From an uncultured Candidatus Saccharibacteria bacterium (GTDB lineage: Bacteria > Patescibacteriota > Minisyncoccia > 2-02-FULL-40-12 > GWA2-44-9): 64,000 nt of DNA. The stretch covers positions 6,777 to 70,776 of the forward strand of contig CAYTBY010000001.1 in the NCBI GenBank assembly GCA_964436165.1. The letters are read 5' to 3'. The notes beneath the pieces are model-generated. The model searched no databases. It saw only the letters and a list, made by a program, of their open reading frames with translations, and was not told where the DNA came from. The position numbers were made by a program, and so were the translations under genes. Below, piece after piece: positions 1 to 50,358 of the stretch (position 1 is its first letter; every line of letters starts with the position of its first letter).

Positions 1-45
1 ATCAGTTTAAGCAAGAATGCCATATTTACTTTTTGGGATGACATC

Positions 46-32639: not shown

Positions 32640-34441
32640 TAGCGTATGTTATAAACTTTATAGAAATACGAGTCTTTATTTTTAAGCAGTTCTGCGGGTG
32701 ATCCTTGTTCTGTAACTGTACCACCGTTCATGACTATCAGGCGGTCTGAGCTTGTTACAGTTGAAAGGCGATGGGCAATAGCAATGACCGTAAGAGAGCG
32801 CTTTAATTCATCTATGGATTTTTGAATATGAACTTCTGATTCGTTATCTAAGGCGCTGGTAGCTTCATCTAGGATTAATATCTCCGGTTTTCTTAATAAG
32901 ACTCTTGCGAGGATGATTCTTTGGCGTTGACCGGCTGAAAGCTTAACACCATTTTCACCCACAAGCGTTTGGAATTTATCGGGAAGTTCGTTTATAAAAT
33001 CATAAGCTTGACTGATTTTGGCGGCTTCTGCTATCTCTTTTTTGGTAGCCATATCATTGTAAAATCTGATGTTGTTTTCTACCGTATCATTCAGTAAAAA
33101 TATCTCTTGCGAGACGTAGCCAACTTTACTGCGCCACTGAAATAAATCTATTCTTGAGATAGGCTTACCGTCGATAAGAATTTCTCCAGCTCCTAATTCA
33201 AATAGCCTTAGAAGGATATCAACCAACGTAGTTTTACCGACTCCGGATGGCCCGATTATGCCTATCATTTCACCGCGCTTTAATGAAAAGCTAAGATTAT
33301 TGAGGACTTTTACGTCATTGTTGTAGCCGAAAGTGATATTGTTAATTTCAAGTTTGTCTTTAAACTCAAATGATAAAATACCGGTATTGATTTCTTGGTG
33401 GCGGTCAGCCTCTTTTTCATAGTCTGAGATCACTTGCAGATATGGCAAAGCCTCATTGACGCCATTTAGTTGGGTGTGCATCGCCTGACTAAATGCAAGT
33501 ATTTTTTGAATTAAATATATTGTTGCAGCAAATGAAGCGATATTAAATTCTGTATTATAGAGATATTCAAATGCAAAAAGGCCTGAAATATAAAATAGTC
33601 CGACAGGTTCAATAAATGAACCAGGCGCTCGGTTGTAGGCCGCTATTTTGAGTCGTATCTGACGCAATTTTGCAAGGTATGAGTTGGTATGATCAATAAT
33701 CTGATCTTCTGTGGCGGTTACTTTAACTGTTTTTGAACCCAGGGCATGCTGACTGATATGATGATTTAAGCTTCTGTTAACACCAGATAATTTATGAGCC
33801 TCTTCTCTAATCCCGTACATCAGAGGCTTTACAAAAAGAAAGATTATTAAACTTACTACTAAGGTTAATATTGTCAGAGAGAGCGAGATATTAATTGCTA
33901 CGATCGTATATGCAATAAGACTCGTTAGAGTCATGATCATCGCATTGATAGTACCAAGAATTCCCGAACACGCATTAACGTCATACATTAATATTGATTC
34001 AAGGTGGCCGGTTTTTTGCTCCATCAGATAGGGCCAGTCTGCTTTTAAGGTCTTTTCGAACAATTCACTGCGCTTTTTCATCTCGTAGTCAGCGGAGACT
34101 TTTTCGTTGTAATAAAATGCACAATAAGTGATGATGCCTTTAAGAATAAACAAAACTAGCACTAAGCCTAGAACATAGAAAAGATTATAGGGTATATGAA
34201 AGAAAGCTAAACCATCTTGTATAAACTTAGATATACTATCCAACTCCTTAATGTTTACTCCTCCTCGACTTCCGACTAGGGCAAACAGGGGAATGACTGC
34301 TCCGATTCCAATACCACCGAATAAACCAGTTATGAACCCCAGGATTGTGGTAACGATAAATCTTCTGCGATAATACCAGAATGATGTCCGGATGATCTTT
34401 AGAGTATTTGTAATTTTTTGGGCGTCGATTAATGCGGGCAT
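32639..34441 (-). CDS. ABC transporter, fused permease/ATPase exporter (type I, MsbA-like)
   Basis: Walker A GPSGVGKTT, ABC signature LSAGQRQR, and Walker B ILILDEATSALD. The N-terminal domain has 6 TM helices. Confidence 0.85.
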   Translation of the reverse strand: MPALIDAQKITNTLKIIRTSFWYYRRRFIVTTILGFITGLFGGIGIGAVIPLFALVGSRGGVNIKELDSISKFIQDGLAFFHIPYNLFYVLGLVLVLFILKGIITYCAFYYNEKVSADYEMKKRSELFEKTLKADWPYLMEQKTGHLESILMYDVNACSGILGTINAMIMTLTSLIAYTIVAINISLSLTILTLVVSLIIFLFVKPLMYGIREEAHKLSGVNRSLNHHISQHALGSKTVKVTATEDQIIDHTNSYLAKLRQIRLKIAAYNRAPGSFIEPVGLFYISGLFAFEYLYNTEFNIASFAATIYLIQKILAFSQAMHTQLNGVNEALPYLQVISDYEKEADRHQEINTGILSFEFKDKLEINNITFGYNNDVKVLNNLSFSLKRGEMIGIIGPSGVGKTTLVDILLRLFELGAGEILIDGKPISRIDLFQWRSKVGYVSQEIFLLNDTVENNIRFYNDMATKKEIAEAAKISQAYDFINELPDKFQTLVGENGVKLSAGQRQRIILARVLLRKPEILILDEATSALDNESEVHIQKSIDELKRSLTVIAIAHRLSTVTSSDRLIVMNGGTVTEQGSPAELLKNKDSYFYKVYNIR

Positions 34442-36298: not shown

Positions 36299-39200
36299 TT
36301 ATTTTTTCTCGTTTATGTCTGCCCAGACCATTATTTTAACGAGATCTTTAAATTTTGTCTTTGGTTGCCAACCGAGCATTTTTTTAGCTTTTGAGGAGTC
36401 GGCAATGAGATGATGGACTTCAGCCGGGCGGTAATAGCGGGGGTCTATCTCGACATATTTTTTGTAGTCGCCAAGGCCGGCTTCTTGAAAGGCAAGTTGT
36501 ACGAACTCGCGAACGGTATGGGTTTCTCCGGTGCCGATGACATAGTCATCCGGCTTTGGCTGCTGCATCATCAGCCACATAGCTTCGCAAAACTCCGGGG
36601 CATAACCCCAGTCGCGTCTAGCGTCAAGATTACCGAGGTATAATTTTTTATCCAGACCGGCTTTTATTCTGGCAATTCCTCTTGTAATTTTTCTGGTAAC
36701 AAATGTCTCACCGCGGCGGGGGCTGTTATGTATCCAAGTAAGACCTATGCCCGCAGAGAAAGTATTGCTCTCGGTTTCTAAGTCAAATAGCCAGCCGGTA
36801 TAGCCATGATTTTTTATTAGTTTAATCTCTGTCAGTTCTCTTTGCAGGTGTTTGCCTTTTCCGGTTTTTTGGTTCGAATTTATATTAAGGTGGTAATAAA
36901 GATAATTTTTTCTAAATTCCGGATGTAGGGTCATTCTTAGTTCTAGTGTATTTTTAACTAAATACCACAAACTTGCTGCTAACACGGAAGAGTTTGTGGT
37001 AAATGATTTAAATTCTGTCTTTTGATGACCGCCCCTAAGTCCATCACAGGAGTTATAGCCACTTAGAAACGCCAGGACCACCTCGTGGTTAGAATTTAAG
37101 ATGCGCTTAGGAACTCTTTTGAATAATTTTTGAGTGTAAATTTCTTTCCATATAAAACGCAAGTAATCCGCATTTCCTCTTAGCTCTGTCGATTTAATTT
37201 TATTAGCAGGGTTAAATCCGCTTGGATGATCATCTTCCCGACTACTTCCTCCGCTAACCTTTTGCCACAAATCAGCAAACCTCCTTCTTAAATTATCAGT
37301 ATTATTTATAAATCGTCCTTTCCCGTCACTGCTTATATAGCCATCAGCAACTAACATTCCCAATAATTCTGCCTCCTCTAATGTAGTAATTGTAATTCTT
37401 TGTAAGGGCGGAAGAGTTTTTAATTCTAAATTATCCCCTGGCTTTAAATTGCCTGTTTTTATTTCAGTAGCTCCTTTTAAAAATGATATATGATCTTCTG
37501 TGGCCTCATAATATCCTCCTCTACATATTACTCGCTTAATTTTTTTGTCTTTTGATGAGCCGTATTCATTCCAGGTGGCAGTCAAGGTTTTAATTTTTGA
37601 CCACTTATCTCCATCCCAAATTTCTACACCCCCGTTGCCCATAGTAATATACTTTTTTCCTTTTGTTGGATCCTCTCGATGGGGCACTATCTCTTCAATA
37701 GGAAGAATATCAATTAAGCCACCCCTTCTGATTATTACTGGTGTTTGCGCCGTGATACATTCGTGATTGAACAAAATTCCGTTAACGGCAAAAATTCCAT
37801 AGGCTTCGCGGTAGAGATTGGTCATGTTATAGGCGAAAAGCTTTGCCGCTCCGTATGGGCTCTGGGGATTGAAGGGTGTTTTCTCATTTTGGGGCGGGGG
37901 AGACGAACCGAACATTTCGGAACTTGAGGCTTGGTAAAATTTAACTTTTTTACTCGCCAAGCCGGAGCCTTTGGCGTAGCGCTGGCCCATATCTTCTTGG
38001 AAATCTCTTATTGCTTCAAGAACCCGCAGAGCTCCATTGCCGGTGATATCCATTGTATATTCTGGAATCTCAAAAGAAACCTTTACGTGGGAATTATGAA
38101 CTACTATATTGCCGACGCCTACAGCGAAATTATGTACTTCAGCCACGGTTATATCATAAACCCAGCCGTTATAATCTATCCATTCTAATTTTTTACTATT
38201 TCCTTGATTTGGCTGGTATGTAGTGCATTCTCTAAAATGCCAAACCGAATGATAGCCTGTGTTTTTATTATTTTCCTCGTTAACGGTATAGTCGTAGTTC
38301 AACAGCGTGAACAACAAACTTAATTGACATGCAAGTTTATATGAATTAGTTGTATACCTAAAGCCGGTACCAGGATTTATACATCCATCGCCTTCGCACA
38401 TTTTTTCCCAAATTTCTTCTAAAAATTTAGCCTCAATCTGAGAGAACCAATAGGGAAGCTGTTTTGTTTTAGAGTTTTCTCCCAGTAATTTTCGAAGTAG
38501 ATTATACAATGCCCTTGATTTTATTTGTAGCTCCCAAACATCTTTATAATTGTCTTTTTTATGCTTGACATACCAACAACTGCCAACATAAAATTTTTTA
38601 AGATCTGATTCAAGGCTTTTAAGCCACTCTTTATTATTTGAGCTTATACCGACATACCAATTTTTATTTGCTTTATTAAAACTTGTATGACCTTCTGCAA
38701 TAAATGCCCCTGTAAATCTACAGAAAGATTTTAACGTATCTCCTTTAACTTTTCTTAAAACCTTGCTGATTAAGCCGTGCTCATCTAGCCAGAAGTATTT
38801 ATTATCAAATTTATAAACCCCGTCTAGTTTTAAAGAAATAGATTTTCTATACCTATTCGGTTTATAATTGAGTTTTCTGATGTTTAATAACCATGGATTT
38901 TCAGATGGACGACAAATTTTTCCAGTTACATCAATTACAGAATGATTAGGCGTTACAGTTACTGATCCAAATTTTTGAGATAATTTTGCGACTTTGCCGC
39001 TCCACCTATGTCTAGATATTTGTTTTATTGGGAAAAACGTTCCCATTCCATTCCACATTCCCAAAGCCCTAAGCTGAGTATTGTTTGATAAATCAATAAC
39101 TTCAACATTAGTATCATCCATTTTCTCTACTCTAACTTTACCCCTCTTTTTTACCTGTTCGCTCCACAAGTCTTCTAATGTTCTATATTCAAGTTTTTGT

Positions 39201-39517
39201 GCAGACAAAATCGGACATAGACATTCACCTGTTACTGATTGCGCCCCCAAATTATATATTTCATCGGGTTTAACTTGATAAATAATTTTTCTGATAGTTC
39301 CTGAATCTGCCAAATCACCGTGATGCAAAAACAACCTCTTGTTTCTTTCGTGAGGATCCTGGTATAAGTGGTTGAGTCGGGAAGTATTAAAAGTCGAGGC
39401 TCTTCTGACTACTCCATGAACAAAATAGCCCTTCTTCAAGAGAAGCTCGGTAAGGTAGGAACCGTCTTGTCCTGTACAGCCAAAAACCAAAGCTATTTTA
39501 TTTTTGTTTTTTACCAT
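36299..39517 (-). CDS. gmd: GDP-mannose 4,6-dehydratase homolog interrupted by two inteins
   Basis: Exteins: [12 protein letters not shown]...YNLGAQ / [12 protein letters not shown]...NGILFNHE / [18 protein letters not shown]. They sum to about 345 aa, colinear with E. coli Gmd. The start at 39517 ([13 protein letters not shown]) is preferred. The ORF is open to 39568. Confidence 0.8.
   Translation of the reverse strand: [1072 protein letters not shown]
36725..37759 (-). mobile_element. Intein 2 (about 345 aa) in Gmd, between FNHE and SPRRGETF. Starts with Cys, ends ...WIHN, with +1 Ser. Contains LAGLIDADG homing-endonuclease motifs ([24 protein letters not shown]).
   Basis: The [21 protein letters not shown] block of Gmd is split exactly at HE|SP. 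Canonical C1 and HN intein termini. Confidence 0.75.
38093..39238 (-). mobile_element. Intein 1 (about 382 aa) in Gmd, between NLGAQ and SHVKVSF. Ends ...VVHN with +1 Ser. Contains LAGLIDADG-like motifs ([17 protein letters not shown]).
   Basis: The insertion splits the contiguous LGAMSHVAVSFE-type extein motif. C-terminal HN. The first intein residue is ambiguous (Ser111 or Cys116). Confidence 0.65.
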
Positions 39518-39575
39518 AAGATTTAGGATAAATATTATCTGTTCAACTGACAATATTGACGCCCACACTCATCTG

Positions 39576-39643: not shown

Positions 39644-39672
39644 TTGACATGGCAACTACAATCGTTTATACT
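39644..39672 (+). promoter_or_regulatory. Sigma70-like promoter for the plus-strand island: TTGACA, a 17-nt spacer, then TATACT
   Basis: -35 at 39644-39649 and -10 at 39667-39672. GGAAGGGG RBS before the ATG at 39711. Confidence 0.45.
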
Positions 39673-39710
39673 ATGTAAGTTTCAAGTTATTTTAAAAATA
39701 GGAAGGGGAT

Positions 39711-40190
39711 ATGGGCCAAGTAATAGCTGTGGGTGGTTTACAAACTGGCGGTGGGAATCTTATAAAACAGACACCCAAAGAAGAATTGTTGATTGAATTG
39801 CGTAGAATTAAGATGAATAATCTTTCCTCTGCCCAAGTCCAAAAGTTGTCTGATAATAAAAAAGTTTTTTGCAGATCTTTCAAGGAGCTTTGCTATTCCA
39901 GATTCGGGTTATCTCCTGATCAGTTAATACAGTTTAAGGATGAGCATTTAAAAGAACTGGATAATCTGCTGTTCGGAAGAGCCAAATGGGCGCGCTTACC
40001 CCCGTATTTAATTTTTTTAATCCCAGTATTTGGACAAGTTGCTTTTTTCGTTGCACGCAATGGAGTATTAGGGATTGGCAATCATGGACCATATTATGTT
40101 GCCCGTAAATTTCTTAAAAAAACTCTTGGTAAAGATTATTTTCCGATTGATGAGCTAAGGAAATATTTAGAGATGGAGGCCAAGCCATGA
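39711..40190 (+). CDS. Hypothetical single-pass membrane protein, family P member 1 (N-terminal LIKQT motif; C-terminal KKTLGKDYFPIDELRKYLE tail)
   Basis: Shares a central ELCYSRFGLSPDQL...LKELDNLLFGRAK block and a C-terminal tail motif with 40852..41433, 42533..43048, 44635..45165 and 45954..46367. Confidence 0.4.
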   Translation: MGQVIAVGGLQTGGGNLIKQTPKEELLIELRRIKMNNLSSAQVQKLSDNKKVFCRSFKELCYSRFGLSPDQLIQFKDEHLKELDNLLFGRAKWARLPPYLIFLIPVFGQVAFFVARNGVLGIGNHGPYYVARKFLKKTLGKDYFPIDELRKYLEMEAKP

Positions 40191-40741
40191 CGGTAAGATA
40201 TAACTCACCGATCATTTTAACCTTTGCTCTTATATCAACAGCAGTTCTCGCCATTTTCATGGCTACCGGTACTACATTCTACCATCTGTTTACTGCGCCG
40301 ACAGATTTCAGGATTTTTTCTCCGTTTACCTACTTTTGCCTGGTGTCGCATATTTTCGGCCATAAAGACTGGAATCACCTCTTGAGTAATTTCATGATAA
40401 TACTGCTCATCGGCCCGCTGGTAGAAGAAAAATATTCTTCGATCGTGCTTTTACTGATGATTCTGATCACGGCCATGGTAACCGGAATTCTAAATATTAT
40501 CCTTTTTTCTACCAGTTTAATGGGAGCGAGCGGTATTGCTTTCATGTTAATTATCCTGGGTTCTTTGACTAATATTAGAAGGAAAGAAGTGCCTCTGACG
40601 TTTTTGCTGGTCATCGCTATTTTTATAGGCGGTGAAGTGCTTAACAGTTTACAGGCAGATAATATTTCTCAATTTGCCCATGTCTTAGGCGGAGTGTGCG
40701 GAGCCGGTTTCGGGCTTACCTTTGCTAAAAAATCTTATTAA
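40187..40741 (+). CDS. Rhomboid-family intramembrane serine protease (6-TM short form)
   Basis: GASGIAF matches the GxSG catalytic Ser motif. AHVLGGVCGAGFG has the catalytic His followed by GxxxG. ATGA overlap with the upstream family-P gene. Confidence 0.65.
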   Translation: MTVRYNSPIILTFALISTAVLAIFMATGTTFYHLFTAPTDFRIFSPFTYFCLVSHIFGHKDWNHLLSNFMIILLIGPLVEEKYSSIVLLLMILITAMVTGILNIILFSTSLMGASGIAFMLIILGSLTNIRRKEVPLTFLLVIAIFIGGEVLNSLQADNISQFAHVLGGVCGAGFGLTFAKKSY

Positions 40742-40757
40742 GTCGTATTTCATTTCC

Positions 40758-40785
40758 GGGCTAAGGCCCGGAGTTTTTGTAAATG
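40758..40785 (+). terminator. Rho-independent terminator after the rhomboid gene
   Basis: CCGGGC-taag-GCCCGG followed by agttttt. Confidence 0.5.
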
Positions 40786-40851
40786 TTGACGACAAATACA
40801 TTTAGTGTATAATATGGCCATCATAAGTTGTTTGAAAAGGGAGAACAAAAG

Positions 40852-41433
40852 ATGTCTAGCAAACTGACTTTGCAGAAAGAGCAAACTGGCCGTTTGATTT
40901 TAGACGGACCTCAGGAAGTAATAAGTTCAAGTCTTGCCAGGTTCAGAGATCTGAATAAAGAAGAAGCCACTAAAGCCGCTCAAGAGGCAACTATTGCACA
41001 TAAAGAAAGTGTAATCAAGAACGCCCAACGAGAAAAAGAATTATATGCCATGAACTTCATGGCTTGCTTTCAGCGTTTTTCACGGATAAATAGCGATCAG
41101 TTTAGAGATATTGTTACCAAGCTGAAAGATAGTGAAATGAGCGCCCTAGAAGATGTAGTAGCTAAAACAATGTATAGGCGAGCCTTTCTGTCATTGAGTT
41201 TCATTTCTCTGGTGTTGATTTCCGGCCTTTCCTGTTTTCTTTACTATTCTTCTAACGATAATTCAGGTTTAGCGACGATGTCATTATTCTTGTCTCTAAT
41301 AACCTTAGGCTTCTTTTTTACAGATACCACTTCTTCAAGAGCCCTCCTTTTTAAAAGGAGAAAATTAAAGAAAATATATGGCCAAAACTACTTTCCATAT
41401 CAGGAATTAAAAAATAAGCTAGAACTAAAATAA
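40852..41433 (+). CDS. Hypothetical 2-TM membrane protein, family P member 2
   Basis: C-terminal KKIYGQNYFPYQELKNKLE tail and central FQRFSRINSDQF...LEDVVAKTMYRRA block. ATG at 40852 with AAAGGGAG RBS; the table start at 40828 is TTG. Confidence 0.4.
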   Translation: MSSKLTLQKEQTGRLILDGPQEVISSSLARFRDLNKEEATKAAQEATIAHKESVIKNAQREKELYAMNFMACFQRFSRINSDQFRDIVTKLKDSEMSALEDVVAKTMYRRAFLSLSFISLVLISGLSCFLYYSSNDNSGLATMSLFLSLITLGFFFTDTTSSRALLFKRRKLKKIYGQNYFPYQELKNKLELK

Positions 41434-41451
41434 TAAAAACGATAAAATCAA

Positions 41452-41478
41452 AAAGCCCCGCCTTGACGGGGCTGTTTT
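41452..41478. terminator. Bidirectional terminator
   Basis: AGCCCCGCC-ttga-CGGGGCT followed by gtttt. Confidence 0.5.
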
Positions 41479-41479
41479 A

Positions 41480-42514
41480 TTAGTTAGCTTGAGCGGAAAC
41501 GGAAACATCAATTATTTCTGCTTCGGCTGGATTTAACATTTTTGTTTGAACCGAAGCTGATTCCAGGGCTAAAGTCCTCTTTCTGTCCTCGCTTGCCAAG
41601 AGCTTCAGTTTCTCGTCAATTCTCCGACTCCCTGTTTCTAAGAGCTTCTGCATATCGGCCGAGACGATAGAGTGGTCGCGGCATTTTCTGACCGCATCCA
41701 GGGCGTTATCAATGGCCCTGATAGAAATATCGCATGTTGTCACCAGAGCATCTCTTCCCGAATACATTATATCGCCTGCCTCAACTAGGGTCTTGGCCGT
41801 ATCTCTAATCGCGGCAAATGGCTTATAAACATTGACAAAGTTATAGTATTCGCCAGCCGCGGCTTCACAAACTTCAAGACTGGCGTAACAGGCCTTAACC
41901 CCGAATATTACCAGGGCTCTACCCTGAGAGAGGTTGTCCTCAAGCTGTTGAAGAAGTCTTTTTCTGCGGTTTTCTTTTTCTTCCTCGCCAAGAACATTGA
42001 ACTTATCATCAAGAAGTTCTGCTATTTCTTCGTCTACTTCAATATCGGCCTGTCTGAATATATATTCATGGAGCTCTCGGGCATTCAAATTTTTTTCTCG
42101 GGCTTCTTCAATATCTGCTTTTTGGGCTTCAATCTCTAGCCCTTTTTCTCTGATGGCATGAGTCAGGTTCTTGGTTGCCATCTGAACGTTGGTTACTCTG
42201 GTTCGATATTCTCCTTCGGCGGCCTCAAGGGCATCTAGTTCTTCGGCTATCATCTTGGTTAGGGGAGCAGGCAGTTTGTGATAAAAACTCTGAGGAATTA
42301 TCAGGTGCAGTCCTCTGGCCAGCCAGCTCTTGGTCCGGTTGGCCGGCAGTTTAAGGATCTGCCTGATGTAATCGTTCAATTCTACAAATTCATCCCGGCT
42401 TCTTTTGACCTCTCTTATTGATTCCTGCAAGGCCCGGTCAGATGCTGACTTAAGGGTTCTTTCCCTGGCTAGTGACGAATTTCTTTTTCCCGAACTGACG
42501 AGTTCTAGCGGCAT
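41480..42514 (-). CDS. Hypothetical coiled-coil-rich protein (344 aa)
   Basis: Extensive heptad-like charged and Leu patterning. No enzymatic motif. Confidence 0.3.
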   Translation of the reverse strand: MPLELVSSGKRNSSLARERTLKSASDRALQESIREVKRSRDEFVELNDYIRQILKLPANRTKSWLARGLHLIIPQSFYHKLPAPLTKMIAEELDALEAAEGEYRTRVTNVQMATKNLTHAIREKGLEIEAQKADIEEAREKNLNARELHEYIFRQADIEVDEEIAELLDDKFNVLGEEEKENRRKRLLQQLEDNLSQGRALVIFGVKACYASLEVCEAAAGEYYNFVNVYKPFAAIRDTAKTLVEAGDIMYSGRDALVTTCDISIRAIDNALDAVRKCRDHSIVSADMQKLLETGSRRIDEKLKLLASEDRKRTLALESASVQTKMLNPAEAEIIDVSVSAQAN

Positions 42515-42532
42515 GTCTGTTCCTCCTTTTTA

Positions 42533-43048
42533 TTACCTTTCTTGAATCTTCAAGTCGGGACAAAAGTTTTTACCGGATAGTGTTCGTATTTTTTTATACC
42601 AATAACAGTATCTGTTATTTTTATATTGGGCATCTTTGCCATAATTTATTTTGTCCATCATGCGTGCGCTACCTTCGCCAGTGATAGTAACTGCTAAAAT
42701 CAACCATCCAAAGAGGGGAATACACAGCAAGATGCCTGTTTGAATAAAACTGGGTATTTTTGACCGTTCATAGATAATCGCCGCTAGTTCATTCAGGTCG
42801 TCTTGTTCTAACTTCTGTAGTTGTTCCAGCGAAACACCCAACTTACTCCAGCAAAGCTGTATAAATAAACGGCTTAGGCCATCCCTTAGCACGTTGTAAT
42901 ATACTATTTCTTTTGCCGTCATATTCTCCGTTTTAAAGGAGTGTAATCTTGTTAATAATGCCTCGCGTTTGGTTTGCAGAATTAGGGCTCGGCTCGTTTC
43001 CTGACTTTTTGTAACGCCAGTCTGTCCTATAGTTAGGGCCTGTTCCAT
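42533..43048 (-). CDS. Hypothetical single-pass membrane protein, family P member 3 (opposite strand)
   Basis: LCWSKLGVSLEQLQKLEQDDLNELAAIIYERSK block and KKIRTLSGKNFCPDLK tail. Confidence 0.35.
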   Translation of the reverse strand: MEQALTIGQTGVTKSQETSRALILQTKREALLTRLHSFKTENMTAKEIVYYNVLRDGLSRLFIQLCWSKLGVSLEQLQKLEQDDLNELAAIIYERSKIPSFIQTGILLCIPLFGWLILAVTITGEGSARMMDKINYGKDAQYKNNRYCYWYKKIRTLSGKNFCPDLKIQER

Positions 43049-43049
43049 T

Positions 43050-43388
43050 TTATTTCTCTTCCTTTACTTCAGTTTTCTGGAGGGACCTAAGGACGGCTTC
43101 AGTTGTCCTGCTTACCGATTTGCCCGTGTATTCCATAGCCTCGTCGTGGCTAAAGTTTGCCTTTATCAGGGCATTATATTGCTCTCTGATTCTTCCGGCT
43201 AAACGTAGATCGGGATCAATAGCTTCATGAAAGTTCTGAACGATAGTTGTCTTTAGCCGGCCAAGCTTGGCTTTTAGCACTCTCTTGGTTATTTCGACGG
43301 CCAGATCCAGATCTTCTTTTGTAAAGGGACTTTCAGTTGTTGATGCCATGGTTCCTCCTTTTCTCTTTTGGAAACGGACACCACTCAA
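43050..43388 (-). CDS. Hypothetical protein (112 aa)
   Basis: ORF only. Confidence 0.25.
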   Translation of the reverse strand: MSGVRFQKRKGGTMASTTESPFTKEDLDLAVEITKRVLKAKLGRLKTTIVQNFHEAIDPDLRLAGRIREQYNALIKANFSHDEAMEYTGKSVSRTTEAVLRSLQKTEVKEEK

Positions 43389-43507
43389 ACCGTGGCCACA
43401 TGTTATTATATTACTTAAGATATGTCAAGAGGTCAATATTGACTTATTACCCTACATTTGTTATATATTCAGCCATAAGTTCTTCGACAACTTAGTAGGA
43501 GTTGAAG

Positions 43508-44062
43508 ATGGAGACAGCCATGCAACTTATTAAAAGCACTTGTTTTGAGCAACTATTGCAAAATATTCGGCAGGAAGAATTAAGGAGAATGGAATCAGAA
43601 CGATTAAAACAGGAGAAAGATAAAAACCATGAGCTTATTAACAGATCATTTCGTGTAATTTATTTATCGGTCATGTCATCATATTTCTATTTAAGACGTG
43701 TGCACAATATGCCAGAAAGACCTCTTACGCTTCAGGAGTTTGAAGCTGTTACTGAACATCTAAAAAAAATAGGCGGACAAACCGTTAAAAAATTTAGACA
43801 TAGATTAGTTCACGCCTTCCGGATTGATACGGCTTGGCATTATTATCTAAAGCATGGCCATTTTCCAGAGAAGAAAACTCCTTTCGGAAGGTGGTACGAT
43901 AATCACCCACTCATTGGTTTTAACCATTTTGATCCTTTTGCGGATCGTAAAAGTTATCGGGACGATTATAATTATAGTATTCCACCTAATATAGATGCAT
44001 TGATTAGAGAAATAAAGGATAAACAACTTGGCCAATGCGAGTCAGAAAGGAAGGGGGAGTGA
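43508..44062 (+). CDS. Hypothetical soluble protein, family Q member 1 (N-terminal METAMQLIKST)
   Basis: Colinear with 46380..46964 (SIMSIYFYLRKVHNM, GWHYYLEYG, FGWWY, IPPN). AGGAG RBS 6 nt upstream of the ATG at 43508. Confidence 0.4.
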   Translation: METAMQLIKSTCFEQLLQNIRQEELRRMESERLKQEKDKNHELINRSFRVIYLSVMSSYFYLRRVHNMPERPLTLQEFEAVTEHLKKIGGQTVKKFRHRLVHAFRIDTAWHYYLKHGHFPEKKTPFGRWYDNHPLIGFNHFDPFADRKSYRDDYNYSIPPNIDALIREIKDKQLGQCESERKGE

Positions 44063-44577
44063 TGGAAACGATAGCGTTAATTAAGTCGACGGCATTTGAG
44101 GGCTTGGTCTCTAAATACCGAGAGGAACAAGAGAAGTATTCGAATTCAGACCTGAATATAGGTCGGGTTAATATAATTACTCGGCAAGTAAAGACCGCTT
44201 ATAATTTTCTGTGTAAATTTGGCAAGCCCCACTCCAGTATGACTTTTGATGAATTTGAAGTGACTGATGGTGAAATAAAAAGAATTCAGCAAGACGAGCT
44301 TCGTATAAATGAAGAGAACCTAAAGGAAACACCGTTTTTTAGGTTCATTAAAAGGCACTCAATATCACAAACGATTTCTAAGAGTCGTTATATTCTTAAA
44401 TGTGGCTATTATCCAGCTTTTTACAAGAATACCTTTTTGGGCCAGTGGACTAATTATAGAGAAGAAGTTCCCCTTAACTTACCAGAGCTAGTGAAAGAGA
44501 TTTGTTTGGCTCGTTGGTGTGTCAGTATCAAACCAGAAGAGATTAACCGTTATAATGAAAACGATAGTCAGAGTTAA
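44062..44577 (+). CDS. Hypothetical soluble protein, family Q member 2 (N-terminal METIALIKSTAFEGL)
   Basis: TGATG stop/start overlap with member 1. AAGGGGGAG RBS. The table start at 44035 would overlap the upstream gene by 28 nt. Confidence 0.35.
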   Translation: METIALIKSTAFEGLVSKYREEQEKYSNSDLNIGRVNIITRQVKTAYNFLCKFGKPHSSMTFDEFEVTDGEIKRIQQDELRINEENLKETPFFRFIKRHSISQTISKSRYILKCGYYPAFYKNTFLGQWTNYREEVPLNLPELVKEICLARWCVSIKPEEINRYNENDSQS

Positions 44578-44634
44578 TGAATTGAACCCAAACACATCAC
44601 ATCTATCTACAGAACCAGAAAGGAGCGCAGAGTG

Positions 44635-45165
44635 ATGGAAACAGCAGTTCAGACAAGGGAAGAGTCAAAACTGATTCTGCCTTCAGGAACGGAAAAATTG
44701 ATGGCCAGAGTCAGGGTCTTAGAGGCCCAGGCATTAAGCGCGAGAAGTGCCGAAATATCAGGAGAATATAAGGGCCAATATAAATTTGCCCTCAGTAGGC
44801 TTGCTCGAAGGTGGCTATCTTTAAAGGAAATTGGTCAATTATCAGAAGAAGAGTACTCAGCGCTGGATTTTATTGTTTATAAAAAATCAGTTCGTCAGTT
44901 AACAATCTGGGGCTTGGCAAATACAGTTATTCTTATTGCGGGGACTTGCCCAGTATTATTGATTCCTGGTTTTGGAACATCCGTGCTGATTTTTATTGTC
45001 TTAGTACTCCTTGCGATGGCTAATGGGCTTTACTTTGATCCTGATCCTAAGAATCCTATGTCGTTCGGAAATTCTATATTTAAATTCTTGAGAGCAAGAA
45101 GGTTTTTGAAAGAACAAGGTTGTCTTGGCCTGGAAATTAAAAATGATGCCAACAGCAGAAGTTAA
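44635..45165 (+). CDS. Hypothetical 2-TM membrane protein, family P member 4
   Basis: LSLKEIGQLSEEEYSALDFIVYKKS block. N-terminal METAVQ. Confidence 0.35.
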   Translation: METAVQTREESKLILPSGTEKLMARVRVLEAQALSARSAEISGEYKGQYKFALSRLARRWLSLKEIGQLSEEEYSALDFIVYKKSVRQLTIWGLANTVILIAGTCPVLLIPGFGTSVLIFIVLVLLAMANGLYFDPDPKNPMSFGNSIFKFLRARRFLKEQGCLGLEIKNDANSRS

Positions 45166-45841
45166 TCAATCTGCCCCTCTTTTTCTTAACCCGGCTGAGT
45201 CTATCATCAGGTCAGACAATATATTATTTAAGTTACGAGCAAAACTGGAAAGTAAAAAATCACCAAAACTTCTGGCCTCTGTAGTTTATTGTCTAGCCCT
45301 TAAAGCTCAAAAGAAAATATTGGCCTATCTCAACGATGATGATTTTTTCTGCCAAGTATTGTGGGATTCAAGGATCGGTTTACCGAGTTCTCCCTCGCTG
45401 GCGGCAGATGTGGCCAAATGCGCAGAGGTATTTGATTTGTCTCCAGAACTGAAATCATTGCTAAATTCTTTGTCCGGCTGGGTTCTTTTTAAAAAAGAAC
45501 AAATGCCATGTTGCTGTGGAGGCAAAGAAAGAATGGTGGATATAGATATTATGATGAATACTATCCTGAAAGTCGAAAACAGCAGTTTGACCGTAAAGTT
45601 TCTTGTCGGAGTAAAAAGCGATGATCAAGACCATCTCGAAAAGCATTATAAGACAAAGAGGCAGAGCAAGGTTGATAGCGGTTTAATTATTATTTTTACT
45701 TGTGAGAATCAAATTACGGCATCAAGCGACGGCCTAATGCCGGTAATAGAATCGATGGATTTCAGTCATGATGAACAGTTACATGTCCCAGAGCTTGAGA
45801 AAAATATTTGGAGCGCAGTCGCTTCAATGGCGGAGTCATAA
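45125..45841 (+). CDS. Hypothetical protein (238 aa), Cys-rich (CCCGG)
   Basis: ORF only. The true start is probably an internal Met, because it overlaps the upstream gene by 41 nt. Confidence 0.25.
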   Translation: MAWKLKMMPTAEVNQSAPLFLNPAESIIRSDNILFKLRAKLESKKSPKLLASVVYCLALKAQKKILAYLNDDDFFCQVLWDSRIGLPSSPSLAADVAKCAEVFDLSPELKSLLNSLSGWVLFKKEQMPCCCGGKERMVDIDIMMNTILKVENSSLTVKFLVGVKSDDQDHLEKHYKTKRQSKVDSGLIIIFTCENQITASSDGLMPVIESMDFSHDEQLHVPELEKNIWSAVASMAES

Positions 45842-45858
45842 GACCCCGCTTTTTGTTT
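45829..45858 (+). terminator. Probable terminator
   Basis: GCGGAGTC-ataa-GACCCCGC with one mismatch, followed by TTTTTG. Confidence 0.35.
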
Positions 45859-45953
45859 GTAAATTTTAATAAAACCCGTACTTGACATTGAGTCAATATT
45901 TTGTTATCAATTTTTCAGTGAATGTGTTGGTCCCTTAACAAAAAGGACTCCAG

Positions 45954-46367
45954 ATGGAAACAGGAACCCTTATTAAGCAGACTATCGAGGAACAGGTGTT
46001 TATCAAGATAAACGTGATGAGACAGAACGAGCTGACCGCAAAACAAGCGAATGAGATTGAAAAGCTGGAAGGACGTATTAAGTGTGATTTCTTTCTTCTA
46101 GTATGGAAATATTTTGGTATTAGTGAATGTCAGGCAAAGCAATTCTCGGACCAGGAGCTCAAGGCCTTATTTTTTATTGTTCATAAAAAAGCTGAAAAAA
46201 CAGCTGTGTATATAAAAACACTATCTGCTATTACGGTGGTCGGTTGGTTTATGGTCAATTCTTATGGTGCTGGTTCAGATACGGTAGATTTTACAAATTC
46301 CGTCCGAAAACTTAAGAAAAAGTTGGGTAATAGTTTTGATCCGGTTAAAATATTACGTTCTATATAA
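45954..46367 (+). CDS. Hypothetical single-pass membrane protein, family P member 5 (N-terminal METGTLIKQT)
   Basis: LLVWKYFGISECQAKQFSDQELKALFFIVHKKAEK block and LKKKLGNSFDPVKIL tail. Confidence 0.4.
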   Translation: METGTLIKQTIEEQVFIKINVMRQNELTAKQANEIEKLEGRIKCDFFLLVWKYFGISECQAKQFSDQELKALFFIVHKKAEKTAVYIKTLSAITVVGWFMVNSYGAGSDTVDFTNSVRKLKKKLGNSFDPVKILRSI

Positions 46368-46379
46368 GGAGGAACAAAA

Positions 46380-46964
46380 ATGACTGAAACCGAACTGGCT
46401 CTTTCGGAGAGTAATATTGACGGACGGCTTATTAAGAGTACTCGTTTTGAAGGTATTTTGGCCAATATCAAGGCTGAACAGGATAAGCACAATCAGGAAA
46501 TGTTGAAGGAATTTGAAAAAAATAAAACAAATGAACTGGTTCAGAATGAATTTCGTAAAATATTCAGATCAATTATGTCGATATATTTCTATTTAAGGAA
46601 GGTTCACAATATGGACAGAAGGGATTTATCTATTGAAGAATATGAGGCGACTAGAGATCATTTGAAAGAAATGGGAGTTAGAGAAGTAAATAAATTAAGG
46701 AACAGATTATTCGGTTCCTTGGGGATAAAAACCGGGTGGCATTATTATTTGGAATATGGATATTTCAAAATTGGCCGAACTCCTTTCGGGTGGTGGTATA
46801 GGTCTCATCCGCTATTTAGCCATGAAGGGTTTGATCCGTTTGAGAGATCTGATCAATTTAGTTCTGGTACCGGTAATTATAGTTATTGCATACCCCCCAA
46901 CATGAAAGTTTTAATGGAGGAATTATTTAAGAAACAAAGTTGCGGAGGAAAGGATTCAAATTGA
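46380..46964 (+). CDS. Hypothetical soluble protein, family Q member 3
   Basis: Colinear with 43508..44062. AAGGAGG RBS. Confidence 0.4.
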   Translation: MTETELALSESNIDGRLIKSTRFEGILANIKAEQDKHNQEMLKEFEKNKTNELVQNEFRKIFRSIMSIYFYLRKVHNMDRRDLSIEEYEATRDHLKEMGVREVNKLRNRLFGSLGIKTGWHYYLEYGYFKIGRTPFGWWYRSHPLFSHEGFDPFERSDQFSSGTGNYSYCIPPNMKVLMEELFKKQSCGGKDSN

Positions 46965-47002
46965 ATGCCATTTAAGATTAACCGAGTTGATTATCAGCGG
47001 AG

Positions 47003-47056: not shown

Positions 47057-48382
47057 GTGATAAATCTAGTATTGAATAGGCTCAATTACTACCGACAGAG
47101 TTTGTTTGTCAGGAATGTGGCGACATTGCAGGTAGGGAGTTTTGGGGGAACATTGGTTCAGGCGGTTTTTGGAATACTTATTGCCCGGCTCTTACAGCCG
47201 GAGCTTTTTGGTGTTTACAGCTTATCTATCGGTCTGGCCGCTTTAGCCGGTTTGCTTTTGGGGGCCGGAATGCAGGATGCGGTGGGGACTTTGGTCGGTT
47301 CGGCTTATGCTAAAAATGACAGAGAAGAACTACAAAATGCCTTGGCTTTTCTTTTAAAAATCACTTTCTATGCCGGAATTTTAACTTTAATTATTTTCTT
47401 TTTTCTTCCGTCGCTGACCGAATATTTTTATAGTAATTCGCTTATCGGCTGGTATGCCGGCATAGTTCTGCTGGCCGTCTTTTTTTCCACTTCTTTCAAC
47501 GCTGTAGTCCAGTTAAGTTTGCAGGTGGCCGGCAAAATTAAAGCCCTGGCTTTACTGGTTTTTGGCGATCAGTTTCTGCGGTCAGGGTTGTCGCTACTTT
47601 TGATATTTGTCGGCCTCGGTGTTTTCGGCGGAGTAAGCGGACAGTTAGTCGGTTCTATAGGTGTATTTATTTTTTCTATTTTAATGTGGCGGAAATTAAG
47701 GAAGGTTTATTCAATCTTTCCATCATTGACGGAGCTTTTTAACCGAACCAAAAGTGTCTCGGTATTTAAATATTTTGGTTTCAGTTTCTGGGTGGCGGTG
47801 GATAGGAATATGGGTAATTTATATATGGCTTTGCCGGTGGTATTAACCGGTATTTATGTCTCGACGGGAGAGGTGTCTTTTTTTAAGCTTGCCTTTGGTT
47901 ATCTTAACATTGCCTTGAGCTTACTCGGCCCCATATCAGTTCTTTTAAACATGGAGTTTCCCAAGATTCAGGTTGAAGATTCCCGTCAGTTGAGGAATAA
48001 CTTTATTAAGATTTCGGTGTTTGGTCTGGTTATTTCCATTGTCCTTACTCTTGCCGCTATTCTTGTATCTCCGTTGGCCTTCAGAATTTTATATGGTGAA
48101 AGTTTTCTGCCCAGCGTCAGCTATGTTTTTGGCCTGGCGGCCTATGGAGCGTTATATGGAATTGGCGTCGGTCTTGGGCCGATGTGGCGGGCGATAAACA
48201 AGGTTAAAGTTTCAATACTTATCAATATCATTATCTTGGGAGGAGGTATTCCGCTCGGCCTTTGGCTCATAAAGCACTACGGTCTTTGGGGTTCAGTTGT
48301 AATGGTGACACTTTGGTTTACTATTTCGCATTTGATATCATTTATTTATCTGATGAAAAAATTAAATAATCGGAATGTATAA
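47057..48382 (+). CDS. Polysaccharide biosynthesis protein, Wzx-like flippase (MOP superfamily)
   Basis: 441 aa, about 12-14 TM helices. N-terminal region typical of oligosaccharide flippases. Confidence 0.55.
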   Translation: MINLVLNRLNYYRQSLFVRNVATLQVGSFGGTLVQAVFGILIARLLQPELFGVYSLSIGLAALAGLLLGAGMQDAVGTLVGSAYAKNDREELQNALAFLLKITFYAGILTLIIFFFLPSLTEYFYSNSLIGWYAGIVLLAVFFSTSFNAVVQLSLQVAGKIKALALLVFGDQFLRSGLSLLLIFVGLGVFGGVSGQLVGSIGVFIFSILMWRKLRKVYSIFPSLTELFNRTKSVSVFKYFGFSFWVAVDRNMGNLYMALPVVLTGIYVSTGEVSFFKLAFGYLNIALSLLGPISVLLNMEFPKIQVEDSRQLRNNFIKISVFGLVISIVLTLAAILVSPLAFRILYGESFLPSVSYVFGLAAYGALYGIGVGLGPMWRAINKVKVSILINIIILGGGIPLGLWLIKHYGLWGSVVMVTLWFTISHLISFIYLMKKLNNRNV

Positions 48383-49478
48383 AAAACCAGCCATCATGTT
48401 AGTTATTGTTATCGGATCAGTGCTTATTTACTTTTTGATTGCTACACCCATAATGATGGATGACGGTACTCACTATGAAGGATTTACTGAGTCGTTGGCA
48501 ATGGGTAACTTGGATTTCAAATCTTTTTATGGTTTTCAGGGCCTGTCTATTTTATCGGTGCCGATATTTTGGCTTACTGGTTCGCACATATCAATTATCA
48601 TCACTTCCGCCATTTTGTATTTATTGGCTTTGCCTTTAGCATATTTTATTGGACGTAGTTATTATCAAAGCAATAGGGCTGGGTTTTATTTTGTGGCGTT
48701 GATTTTGCTTATGCCCTACACTTATACGACAATGATGCGAGGATTTCAGGAAGCGGGGCTTTTATTTTTTATTCTTCTTATCATTTACGGGGCAATTAGT
48801 AAAAAAACATGGACGCCTGTCTCATGGGCTGTCGGAGGAATTGTTAAACCTTTCGCCTTGGTCCTGTTCCCTCTTTTTGCCAAAGATTTTTTTGACCGGA
48901 AGAAAATTATCTGGATTATTGTTGCCGGTGCGATCGGCACTGCCTATTTGAGTGCTAGCTATTATCAAACCGGACATTTGATAAATAATGCGGCCATTAA
49001 TTCTTATCAAGGAAACTTTGATACCGGCAATCCTCCGCCCCTGACCGAGAGTTTCACCGTCGGCATAAAAGGATTTTTGAGGGTTGGAGCTAATTTATTT
49101 TTACACTATAGGAAAATTTTAATATCGCCGTTGATTATTATTCTTGGCGGTTTAACTCTGCTCCTAAAAAAAGACCTAAGATTGCGGAAGGAAATAATGT
49201 TGGCTATTTTATTAAATTTTATCTTGGTTGGAAGTTTGACGTTTTCTTTTTCAAAATATCTTTTACCGATGGCAGTTCTGCTGGCCCTGGTTTCGGTTAA
49301 TTATTTGTTAAAATATAAATGGCTGATGCCGTTAGTTCTAGCCGACTCCTTATTTATATTTCTGCCGATATGGGGCTATTTTGGCGTTGATTTTTGGAGT
49401 AATATCTACCTATATCTAGCCCCATATTATTTAGCTGTCTTTATCTATATTAGGACTTACGCGTTTGCCCAAGATTAA
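48375..49478 (+). CDS. Polytopic membrane protein (367 aa); possible glycan polymerase or GT-C-like enzyme
   Basis: About 10 or more TM helices. The last 9 codons and the stop lie inside MITE copy C. Confidence 0.3.
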   Translation: MYKKPAIMLVIVIGSVLIYFLIATPIMMDDGTHYEGFTESLAMGNLDFKSFYGFQGLSILSVPIFWLTGSHISIIITSAILYLLALPLAYFIGRSYYQSNRAGFYFVALILLMPYTYTTMMRGFQEAGLLFFILLIIYGAISKKTWTPVSWAVGGIVKPFALVLFPLFAKDFFDRKKIIWIIVAGAIGTAYLSASYYQTGHLINNAAINSYQGNFDTGNPPPLTESFTVGIKGFLRVGANLFLHYRKILISPLIIILGGLTLLLKKDLRLRKEIMLAILLNFILVGSLTFSFSKYLLPMAVLLALVSVNYLLKYKWLMPLVLADSLFIFLPIWGYFGVDFWSNIYLYLAPYYLAVFIYIRTYAFAQD

Positions 49479-49632
49479 GGCAAAATGCTTAAGTTTTTAT
49501 GAGACGTACTAGGAGTACGGCGAGTAAAAACTTAAGCATTTTAACGAAAAGATTGGGCAAACCCTTGCGGCTTGAGCTACGCTAAGCCCTATAGATTTTG
49601 GGCTTCGTAGCTCAAGCGCGTAAGTCCTATAT
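49451..49632. mobile_element. MITE-like structured repeat, copy C (182 bp)
   Basis: TA|GGACTTACGCG...CGCGTAAGTCC|TA termini. Three nested stem-loops, including a perfect 17-bp inverted repeat AAAATGCTTAAGTTTTT/AAAAACTTAAGCATTTT and a 12-bp inverted repeat GCTTGAGCTACG/CGTAGCTCAAGC. Confidence 0.55.
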
Positions 49633-49636
49633 ATTT

Positions 49637-50335
49637 ATGCAACGAGAATCAGTCGTTTTAATCCCAACTCTTAACGAGAGGAAAAATCTGGAAAAACTTA
49701 TTCCGGCGATATTTAGTTCTATGCCGGAAATTTCGGTTTTAGTCATGGACGATAATTCTGGCGATGGGACGGCCCAGTTTCTGAATTCTATTCAAGCCAG
49801 ATTTCCCAATCTATTTTTTTTAAATCGGGATAAGGATTTTGGCTACGGCAAGGCCTGTCTGGATGGTTTCAGGTGGGCGTTGGGAGGGGGATATAAACAC
49901 ATTGTGACAATGGACGCTGATTTTTCTCATGACTTTAAAAGCATTCCCGGTTTTCTTAATAAACTTGAGAATAATGATGTTGTCATCGGTTCGCGTTATA
50001 TAGCCGGAGGGAAGATAGAAAATTGGGGACTTCATCGTAGAATTTTAAGTAAAGCCGCCAATTTCTATGTCCGGACGATTTTGAATCTGAAAATTAAGGA
50101 CTTGACGACTGGTTTCAACGCTTACCGCCGAGAAATTCTGTCCAAGATAAATTTTGATGATATTAAATCCGACGGTTATGCTTTTTTGGTCGAGCTGAAA
50201 TACAAATTGTTCAAATCGGGTGCTAAAATTACTGAATATCCGATTACGTTTTACGAAAGACGGGAGGGCGAATCAAAAATGACCGGCAAAGTAATTTTAG
50301 AATCAATTAAAATGCCTTGGCGGTTGAGGTTTTAA
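49637..50335 (+). CDS. GT2 polyprenol-phosphate glycosyltransferase (dolichol-phosphate mannose synthase-like)
   Basis: VLIPTLNE and VMDDNSGDGT (DxD-like) are GT2 motifs. MDADFSHD has the DAD and the family-typical SHD pattern. The start at 49637 lies just outside the MITE. Confidence 0.8.
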   Translation: MQRESVVLIPTLNERKNLEKLIPAIFSSMPEISVLVMDDNSGDGTAQFLNSIQARFPNLFFLNRDKDFGYGKACLDGFRWALGGGYKHIVTMDADFSHDFKSIPGFLNKLENNDVVIGSRYIAGGKIENWGLHRRILSKAANFYVRTILNLKIKDLTTGFNAYRREILSKINFDDIKSDGYAFLVELKYKLFKSGAKITEYPITFYERREGESKMTGKVILESIKMPWRLRF

Positions 50336-50358
50336 AATATAAGTTTTATTATTGATCT

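Follow-up and report, generated by a model that had tools for sequence, protein, structure and literature searches.

An uncultured Candidatus Saccharibacteria bacterium carries, on a contig of which we analysed 64,000 nucleotides (CAYTBY010000001.1, positions 6,777 to 70,776; this whole stretch is the window below), an island of small paralogous genes of two families, P and Q, together with a rhomboid intramembrane protease gene, at window positions 39644 to 46964. The region is best explained as a lineage-specific, expanded and fast-evolving copy of a three-to-four-gene module confined to the Candidate Phyla Radiation (CPR, or Patescibacteria), in which the P and Q proteins would bind a shared partner by a common N-terminal strand and helix start, and the rhomboid would be a clade-specific neighbour. 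We put the probability of this explanation at about 0.5.

The module emerges from gene orders that were obtained by local hidden Markov model searches of fetched loci (L numbers below; P1 to P5 and Q1 to Q3 are the members of the window). Its conserved core is a gene for a protein of about 95 amino acids (aa), X112, followed by a P gene (about 150 aa) and by a gene for a protein of about 340 aa, X344, usually with a further gene, X238, nearby. The gene orders are as follows.

L004 (Saccharibacteria): X238 < P, then X112 > P5-like > P3-like > X344
L009: X238, then X112 > P3-like > X344, then a divergent P-like gene
L015 to L017: soluble P-like > X112 > P > X344
L018: two P2-like > X238 > X112 > ... 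> P > X344
L019: X112 > P5-like > X344
L003: X112 > P
L008 and L012: P3-like > X344, convergent with the rhomboid gene beside gmd, as in the window
L020: X112 > X344 > rhomboid > P2-like > 192 aa > X238

In seven independent loci (L004, L008, L009, L012, L015, L018 and L019), the gene just upstream of X344 is a P gene, and homologues of X112, which share the motif Y-[ND]-A-L-x-K-A-G/N-F-[ST]-x-[DE]-E-A, lie upstream of P or X344 in L003, L004, L009, L015, L018, L019 and L020. X238, with a conserved CCCG cluster and a GLPSxPSLxAD motif, has homologues of 34-50% identity in L004, L008, L009, L018 and L020.

The island comprises 12 genes in the window, bordered on one side by the gene of an intein-bearing GDP-mannose 4,6-dehydratase (36299-39568, minus strand) and on the other by that of a polysaccharide flippase (47057, plus strand). 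The sequence-only reading had placed two families within about 7 kb under one promoter; it overlooked three more conserved genes, X344, X112 and X238, and the single unit gives way to about four, because promoter-like and terminator-like sites (consensus pattern matches only) split the island and X112-P3-X344 is encoded on the minus strand.

39644..39672, plus strand: promoter-like TTGACA-17-TATACT ahead of P1 and the rhomboid gene, consensus scan 11/12
39711..40190, plus strand: P1, P family, 159 aa
40187..40741, plus strand: rhomboid, minimal intramembrane serine protease, 184 aa
40754..40773, plus strand: terminator-like hairpin 3' of the rhomboid gene, 8-bp stem with 6 GC pairs and a T-run
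40786..40813, plus strand: promoter-like TTGACG-16-TATAAT ahead of P2, consensus scan 11/12
40852..41433, plus strand: P2, divergent P family, 193 aa
41454..41473, both strands: bidirectional terminator-like hairpin between the convergent P2 and X344
41480..42514, minus strand: X344, 344 aa, all-helical
42533..43048, minus strand: P3, P family, 171 aa
43050..43349, minus strand: X112, 99 aa, helical, first gene of the operon X112-P3-X344 (start 43349 taken from the gene call on an identical contig, L001)
43400..43428, minus strand: promoter-like TTGACA-17-TAACAT for X112-P3-X344, consensus scan 10/12
43508..44062, plus strand: Q1, Q family, soluble, 184 aa
44062..44577, plus strand: Q2, divergent Q family, 171 aa; start overlaps the Q1 stop by one base (a gene caller prefers an ATG at 44035)
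44635..45165, plus strand: P4, divergent P family, 176 aa
45143..45841, plus strand: X238, soluble, 232 aa; start overlaps the 3' end of P4
45954..46367, plus strand: P5, short P family, 137 aa
46380..46964, plus strand: Q3, Q family, soluble, 194 aa
46996..47016, plus strand: terminator-like hairpin that closes the Q1-Q3 unit

The first unit runs from the promoter at 39644 through P1 and the rhomboid gene to the terminator at 40754, the second from the promoter at 40786 through P2 to the terminator at 41454-41473, the third from the promoter at 43428 on the minus strand through X112-P3-X344, and the fourth from Q1 through Q3 to the terminator at 46996.

The two families, with five P and three Q genes at the coordinates given earlier, are borne out by pairwise blastp as true paralogs: the expectation values are 7e-11 for P1-P3, 5e-8 for P1-P5, 3e-4 for P3-P5, 4e-3 for P4-P5 and 0.09 for P1-P2, and 8e-50 for Q1-Q3 and 3e-5 for Q1-Q2. 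P2 and P4 are the weakest P members, and both are backed by outside homologues (P2 in L020, 4e-20; P4 in L009, 5e-4). The P alignments show a central block, a hydrophobic segment with IPxxG[WQ] and a KKxxGxx[YF]FP tail.

What the two families have in common is an N-terminal element. Members of both had been said to begin with a near-identical MET..LIK[SQ]T(x)FE; the shared element stands, with LIK[SQ]T present in five of the eight genes, LIL in P2, P3 and P4, and FE specific to Q. A six-frame translation of the whole 64 kb yields five matches to LIK[SQ]T and seven to LI[KL].[TG]..E, all of which lie in P or Q genes, among the first 5-22 residues; the motif is thus exclusive to P/Q genes in the window. 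When the P and Q profiles were compared (hhalign), only about 22 N-terminal columns were significant, with P = 6.3e-4 for 120 P against 4 Q sequences and an E value of 0.024 with five P sequences. The codons under the motif vary at synonymous positions among the P/Q genes and the DNA holds no long repeats, so the conservation is old and acts on the peptide, not on recently copied DNA. DNA repeats in the window are short, chance-level matches only, which leaves neither flanking repeats nor a recent duplication. The sole DNA-level likeness between paralog starts is a 27-nt stretch, 85% identical, at the starts of Q2 and P4 (44043-44069 versus 44616-44642; CAGAAAGGA..G..GAGTGATGGAAAC), which spans the ribosome-binding site, a TGA and the first codons. 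That X238, X344 or X112 might share the N-terminal module was also considered, and the profile comparisons were not significant.

The P family extends well beyond the window. A profile built from the five P proteins of the window, used in a HMMER scan of 1.84 billion cluster representatives, retrieved 247 representatives at E <= 1e-3 and 112 at E <= 1e-10, nearly all of 130-190 aa; a word-indexed search with the same five-sequence profile gave self matches only. All P loci with an organism name come from CPR genomes (Saccharibacteria, Yanofskybacteria and Paceibacterota metagenome-assembled genomes), and one sample was a 0.1-um groundwater filtrate. P relatives on viral contigs (IMG/VR) were not found. 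Searches with the P3-subfamily alignment returned four genome loci, two metagenome loci and no viral locus.

Among 120 members, the conserved features of the P proteins begin with [LI][IV]xx[TNG]xx[ED]xLLxK[LI]xx[FML][KR]..NLTA, with column frequencies of L74/I18, I56/V37, T35/N28/G16, E79/D19, L61, L57 and K66 ahead of NLTA, and continue with F..L....FG[IL]S..Q[LI]..L...EL..L, IP(86%)xxG(94%)W(82%) and Y....[RK][KR]L[KR]K..G(95%)..[YF]FP. P1 combines the N-terminal NLIKQTPKEELL, a Pro/Gly-kinked hydrophobic segment at residues 96-119 and the tail KKTLGKDYFPIDELR, and its nearest outside relatives (L015, L018) are 36-37% identical. P2 begins with GRLILDGPQE and has two hydrophobic segments and the tail KRRKLKKIYGQNYFPYQELK; its homologue P0149 in L020 (30% identity) likewise lies directly downstream of the rhomboid orthologue. 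P3 is nearest the family consensus (ALILQTKREALL ... LCWSKLGVSLEQL ... IPLFGW ... GKNFCP) and shares 40-47% identity with homologues in metagenome-assembled genomes of Saccharibacteria, Yanofskybacteria and Paceibacterota. P4 contains a hydrophobic block of about 48 residues, with two helices around IPGFG, and P5 (METGTLIKQTIEEQ ... KKKLGNSFDPVKILR) a weak segment; the homologues of P5 are 43% (L004), 48% (L019) and 33% (L008) identical. The tail previously ascribed to the whole family, K-K-x-x-G-x-[ND]-[YF]-F-P, is found in P1, P2 and P5, partly in P3, and is lost in P4. The assignment of P as membrane proteins with one or two transmembrane (TM) helices holds for P1, with one hydrophobic segment, and for P2 and P4, with two, but not for P5, which has no TM segment by the Kyte-Doolittle scale used throughout.

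The Q proteins are soluble, as proposed, with no membrane segment and only about 22 residues in common with P. Q1 carries METAMQLIKSTCFEQLL and the motifs WHYY, FGRWY and IPPN; Q2 has METIALIKSTAFEGLV, and its L008 orthologue is 39% identical (8e-36); in Q3 an extension of 15 residues precedes the motif (DGRLIKSTRFEGIL). Among 5.8 billion proteins, a word-indexed search found no homologue of Q3 beyond its own genome, and outside the window the Q family was seen again in L008 only. In L009 (3012-3575, minus strand), at the place that the rhomboid gene takes in L008 and L012, is encoded a 187-aa protein with a Q-style N-terminus, PLIRHTSFE, and a P-style anchor, FFLPIFGW, which matches the P profile weakly (E 0.005) and may represent a form intermediate between P and Q. 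The array of L008 ends, at the position of Q3, in a 196-aa orphan (10-600, minus strand; N-terminus GGLVKDFLTELSE) whose similarity to Q or P is not detectable.

The AlphaFold2 model of P1, built with the 120-sequence alignment, is all-helical (mean predicted local distance difference test, pLDDT, 85.7; predicted template modelling score 0.71), with helices at residues 22-36, 40-65, 69-73, 77-94, 98-102, 105-116, 126-139 and 146-157. In this model LIKQT (17-21) forms a low-confidence extended stretch immediately before helix 1, which starts at residue 22. The N-terminal motif looks like the first structural element of the P family, continuous with helix 1, and not like a cleaved leader, because the family-wide conservation runs unbroken into that helix. 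The same unbroken conservation speaks against the earlier proposal of a targeting or processing signal at the N-terminus, cleavable and recognised by the rhomboid, and the rhomboid would be unable to act there because the motif is about 80 residues from the only hydrophobic segment of P and Q has no membrane segment. Double-glycine-leader peptides were likewise rejected, as no conserved GG follows the motif, the conservation enters helix 1, and the ABC exporter of the window (32639-34441) shows ABC_membrane and ABC_tran domains only. A 657-aa open reading frame (30666-32639, minus strand) abuts that exporter gene on its downstream side and has no Pfam match at E <= 0.1. A ribbon-helix-helix reading of the N-terminal strand and helix found no Pfam support even at E 10, and capsid-targeting peptides of the T4 type or microcompartment encapsulation peptides were set aside, the window holding no phage or shell genes.

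The P proteins have no signal peptide and consist of a helical N-terminal domain, a short hydrophobic segment that the conserved Pro-x-x-Gly-Trp interrupts, and a basic/aromatic tail, likewise conserved. Uncharged residues run for a median of 21 aa at the longest, with a median of 41 residues after them, and in 29 of the 120 members, P5 included, the segment falls below any TM threshold. A soluble variant in L015 (65-565, plus strand; E 2.6e-13) keeps GLIKQT and the tail NYFPIEQLR, and a charged linker replaces its hydrophobic segment. In the P1 model, pLDDT is 68-80 over the hydrophobic part and 96-97 in the tail. These features suggest that both the N-terminal domain and the tail are cytoplasmic, on one side of the membrane, and that the hydrophobic segment forms an anchor of the membrane-dipping or hairpin type, because the soluble member keeps both ends, the two-helix P2 and P4 keep the same ends, and the confidence of the tail exceeds that of the hydrophobic part.

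Taken with the gene orders, the following mechanism may be proposed. The N-terminal strand and helix start would be a docking or oligomerisation element of the P and Q paralogs, through which the diversified proteins would bind one common partner, most plausibly X344/X112, or each other. P would comprise the membrane-anchored members and Q the soluble offshoots of what would be a membrane-anchored protein complex with a shared docking element. The rhomboid, if it acts on the module, would target the kinked membrane anchors, especially those of the two-helix P2 type encoded just downstream, and not the N-terminal motif. We infer both the docking role and the same-side topology from the sequences and the P1 model.

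The P1 reading frame runs to 40190 and the rhomboid gene starts with the ATG at 40187, confirming the ATGA overlap described earlier. The rhomboid matches Pfam Rhomboid (PF01694) at 2e-14 over residues 50-181 (54.4 bits, cut-off 22.6), and its catalytic motifs, GASG (LMGASGIAF), AHVLGG (FAHVLGGVCG) and the TM2 His/Asn motif (HIFGHKDWNHLLSN / HIFGHKDWNHLLSNF), are intact and all kept in the L008, L012 and L020 orthologues. It thus appears to be an active minimal rhomboid, and its place as a neighbour of the module is confined to one clade: orthologues of 70-74% identity adjoin the module in L008, L012 and L020, which with the window form that clade. Because the gmd flank is common to the window, L008 and L012, their rhomboid placement is one inherited arrangement. 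A general link to rhomboids, which the sequence-only reading had wanted checked in other genomes, is not supported: no rhomboid gene was found in at least five module loci, L004 (20 kb), L009, L015, L018 and L019, or at the stand-alone P loci L005-7 and L013. The pace of divergence speaks against such a link too, since the rhomboid changes like its housekeeping neighbours and more slowly than the module proteins. A literature search for work linking rhomboids with CPR or Patescibacteria returned nothing relevant.

It is possible that the rhomboid cleaves P-type membrane anchors in its one clade. Helix-breaking Pro/Gly residues in the hydrophobic segment are a feature of rhomboid substrates, and AarA-TatA is a dedicated rhomboid/substrate pair. 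A many-to-one protease/substrate system, in which the rhomboid would cleave the kinked P segments and free cytoplasmic domains or tails, as rhombosortase or AarA act on dedicated substrates, could accommodate the translational coupling of P1, the intact catalytic motifs, and the near-invariant Pro (86%) and Gly (94%) of the segment. It could also accommodate the adjacency in four loci, including L020 with other flanks, and the order rhomboid > P2-type shared by the window and L020. P genes also adjoin a membrane protease gene, lepB, in L005-7 and L013. We nevertheless consider such a system unlikely, since the four linked loci are one clade and not independent, the rhomboid is absent from the loci just named, and Q has no membrane segment. 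Moreover, a terminator-like hairpin and a separate promoter stand between the rhomboid gene and P2. The lack of a signal peptide and the large N-terminal domain of P further point to an N-in orientation, and characterised rhomboid substrates are N-out.

The known systems differ accordingly. AarA-TatA and rhomboids generally resemble the present case in the intact core (GxSG, His, HxxxxHxxxN) and in neighbour proteins with helix-destabilising Pro/Gly; the predicted orientation of P, with its large domain inside, is opposite to that of known substrates, and the linkage is limited to one clade. Rhombosortase/GlyGly-CTERM (PMC3237569, PMC6219818) likewise combines a small rhomboid-family protease with paralogous proteins that bear a short conserved tag. 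However, although the rhombosortase model TIGR03902 is the best-scoring NCBIfam model for our rhomboid, its 38.5 bits do not reach the cut-off of 84, and the GlpG-type models TIGR04239 (28.9 versus 250 bits) and NF008155 (22.9 versus 335 bits) are not reached either. The tag here is N-terminal and far from the membrane segment. GlyGly-CTERM, found at the very C-terminal end of secreted proteins, consists of a Gly/Ser-rich motif, a hydrophobic helix and basic residues (PMC3237569, PMC6219818), whereas P has no signal peptide, no Gly-Gly motif and no hydrophobic-then-basic segment at its extreme C-terminus, about 41 conserved residues following the hydrophobic segment; the Q proteins have no membrane segment at all.

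The window array, with eight P/Q genes against three to four in L008 and L004, is the largest seen in the loci examined. Judged by sequence identity between the window and L008, the island proteins (X344 51%, X238 50%, P3 43%, Q2 39%, P5 33%) evolve much faster than their neighbours, 33-51% standing against 73-84% for the rhomboid and flanks (gmd 84%, epimerase 80%, rhomboid 74%, SIS 73%). The earlier suggestion of a toxin/immunity-like array may or may not hold: this rapid divergence agrees with it, but Pfam, NCBIfam and PADLOC searches of the P, Q and X proteins revealed no toxin, immunity or trafficking domain, and the gene order is irregular across loci with no regular toxin-immunity alternation.

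The divergence, the gene content that varies among related loci and the common N-terminal segment of otherwise different proteins could also be attributed to an effector or polymorphic-toxin-like array that would serve interaction with a host cell. Its small proteins (P, Q, X238 and others) would bear a handle read by X112 as a chaperone or adaptor, and would pass through, or work with, X344 as a helical translocator or pore-former. An episymbiotic life is inferred for CPR bacteria (PMC6744442), and almost all of the top Foldseek matches for X344 belong to the ClyA family of alpha-pore-forming toxins (YaxA, PaxB, AhlC, Hbl-B, MakE, XaxAB, ClyA, NheA). These fold matches are not significant (E >= 0.058, TM-scores 0.16-0.32) and come from a low-confidence model of long helices (pLDDT 59), so that the likeness is a lead, not a result. 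X344, with seven close homologues, is of similar size to the ClyA-family proteins (YaxAB/XaxAB, AhlABC, Hbl/Nhe, MakABE) and is likewise all-helical with very long helices; unlike them, it has no hydrophobic head or beta-tongue segment, indeed no TM or hydrophobic segment by the Kyte-Doolittle scale, no paralogous partner subunits and no PDB sequence-profile match. Nor was a secretion domain found in Pfam, NCBIfam or PADLOC, and the single P genes in housekeeping neighbourhoods (lepB/pth; hisS-ftsA-ftsZ), in Yanofskybacteria-type genomes, suit a cellular role better than that of accessory effectors. An effector array therefore seems to us improbable.

Two other architectures bear comparison. 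PE/PPE and LXG families have a conserved N-terminal helical module and variable C-termini; like the P/Q array, they form paralog arrays with an N-terminal signature, diversified C-termini and small helical partners adjacent, but we found no sequence or profile similarity and no type VII secretion genes, P and Q are much smaller, and the likeness is architectural only. In the PspA-PspBC and LiaH-LiaI pairs, a soluble helical protein is recruited by a small membrane anchor protein, and the module shares the small membrane-anchored protein encoded directly upstream of a larger all-helical soluble one. Pfam and fold searches gave no similarity to PspA/IM30, PspB/C or LiaI, however, and X344 is longer than PspA and is not accompanied by stress-regulator genes.

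The weak matches of Pfam HTH_25 to LCWxKLGISxxQL of P3 and P0011 (E 0.008-0.08, below the membership cut-off), together with the neighbouring membrane-protease genes, might indicate membrane-tethered regulators, in which the N-terminal domain of P would be a DNA- or sigma-binding helical domain of the RodZ, anti-sigma or ChiS kind, anchored and possibly released by proteolysis. Small helical bundles routinely give such scores, though, no sigma factor or target gene is conserved nearby, and X344, X112, X238 and Q would be left unexplained; we regard this as very improbable.

Several observations weigh against our preferred explanation of a module built around a shared docking element. The homology between P and Q rests on a short segment with modest statistics. 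The 21-residue hydrophobic segment of P could equally be a normal single-span helix. In L005-7 and L013 (Yanofskybacteria/Paceibacterota), a lone P gene lies beside lepB, between it and pth, and the surrounding 10 kb contain no other gene of the module; since these loci have no X344 within that distance, P does not strictly need an X344 encoded nearby. Finally, in L020 the visible flanks and the internal order differ from those of the window, yet the rhomboid > P2-type pair is kept with the module, which is mild evidence of a possibly genuine functional partnership between rhomboid and module in that clade.

The lepB context is a second, unrelated setting that places a P gene next to one for a membrane protease: the P gene is divergent from signal peptidase I (lepB), about 60-70 bp apart, followed by pth (L005 9206-10486, L006 9251-10519, L007 5785-7061, L013 9251-10519). 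In L023, tandem P genes stand beside the hisS-ftsA-ftsZ cluster. Downstream of the module and leuS in L015 (5089-9111, plus strand), genes for a Sigma70_r4-containing protein, a DUF8128 protein and a TrwB/VirD4-type coupling protein may form a type IV secretion-related cluster near the module.

The island of the window is enclosed by a large sugar-nucleotide and surface-glycan region (1-36000 and 47057-52593) with epimerases, SIS, GHMP kinase, dTDP-sugar epimerase, cytidylyltransferases, a carbamoyltransferase, the flippase, GT2 and an O-antigen-ligase-like protein with TPR repeats. The adjacent GDP-mannose 4,6-dehydratase (36299-39568, minus strand; 1089 aa) matches Pfam GDP_Man_Dehyd in three stretches, with LAGLIDADG_3 and Intein_splicing between them, and appears to carry two inteins; the L008 and L012 orthologues are uninterrupted at about 351 aa. 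Rfam and tRNA scans of the window gave no matches.

The earlier failure to match these proteins to a described family has been upheld. P, Q, X344, X112 and X238 have no match in Pfam, NCBIfam, PHROGs, PADLOC or PDB sequences (none below E 0.01 in PHROGs and PADLOC; none above the Pfam cut-off for X238), profile searches place them in no well-characterised family, and the PDB sequence-profile searches with P, Q and X344 returned a PsbY transmembrane-helix match and coiled-coil noise only. The P1 fold model found no solved counterpart. Phage or anti-phage defence families were considered and rejected, with no PHROGs or PADLOC match, no IMG/VR relative and no BFVD fold match. Because none of the five non-rhomboid families has a match in any library tested and the P fold is unmatched, we assign the module to no described kind. 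This novelty is tempered by the many such families present in CPR genomes (PMC6744442).

To conclude, much of bacterial diversity belongs to the CPR/Patescibacteria, whose lineage-specific protein families are mostly without a known role (PMC6744442). Our work turns one such set of anonymous hypothetical genes into a concrete module of five families that occur together and have been aligned, with a confident model of the P fold, a conserved gene order, a shared N-terminal element and a clade-restricted protease link. If the module is an ordinary structural membrane complex, its value would lie mainly in annotation. A bolder version, which we think rather a long shot, is a CPR-specific system in which a handle of about 22 N-terminal residues marks diversifying small proteins (membrane-anchored P, soluble Q and perhaps more) for a helical X112/X344 complex, and the dedicated rhomboid of one clade processes their Pro/Gly-kinked anchors; if true, it would be a new kind of many-to-one protease/substrate or effector handling, possibly at the interface between episymbiont and host. 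To our knowledge, very few natural bacterial rhomboid substrates are known. The module thereby raises testable questions about what binds the N-terminal segment, whether the hydrophobic segment is a hairpin anchor, and whether P provides a natural bacterial rhomboid substrate.

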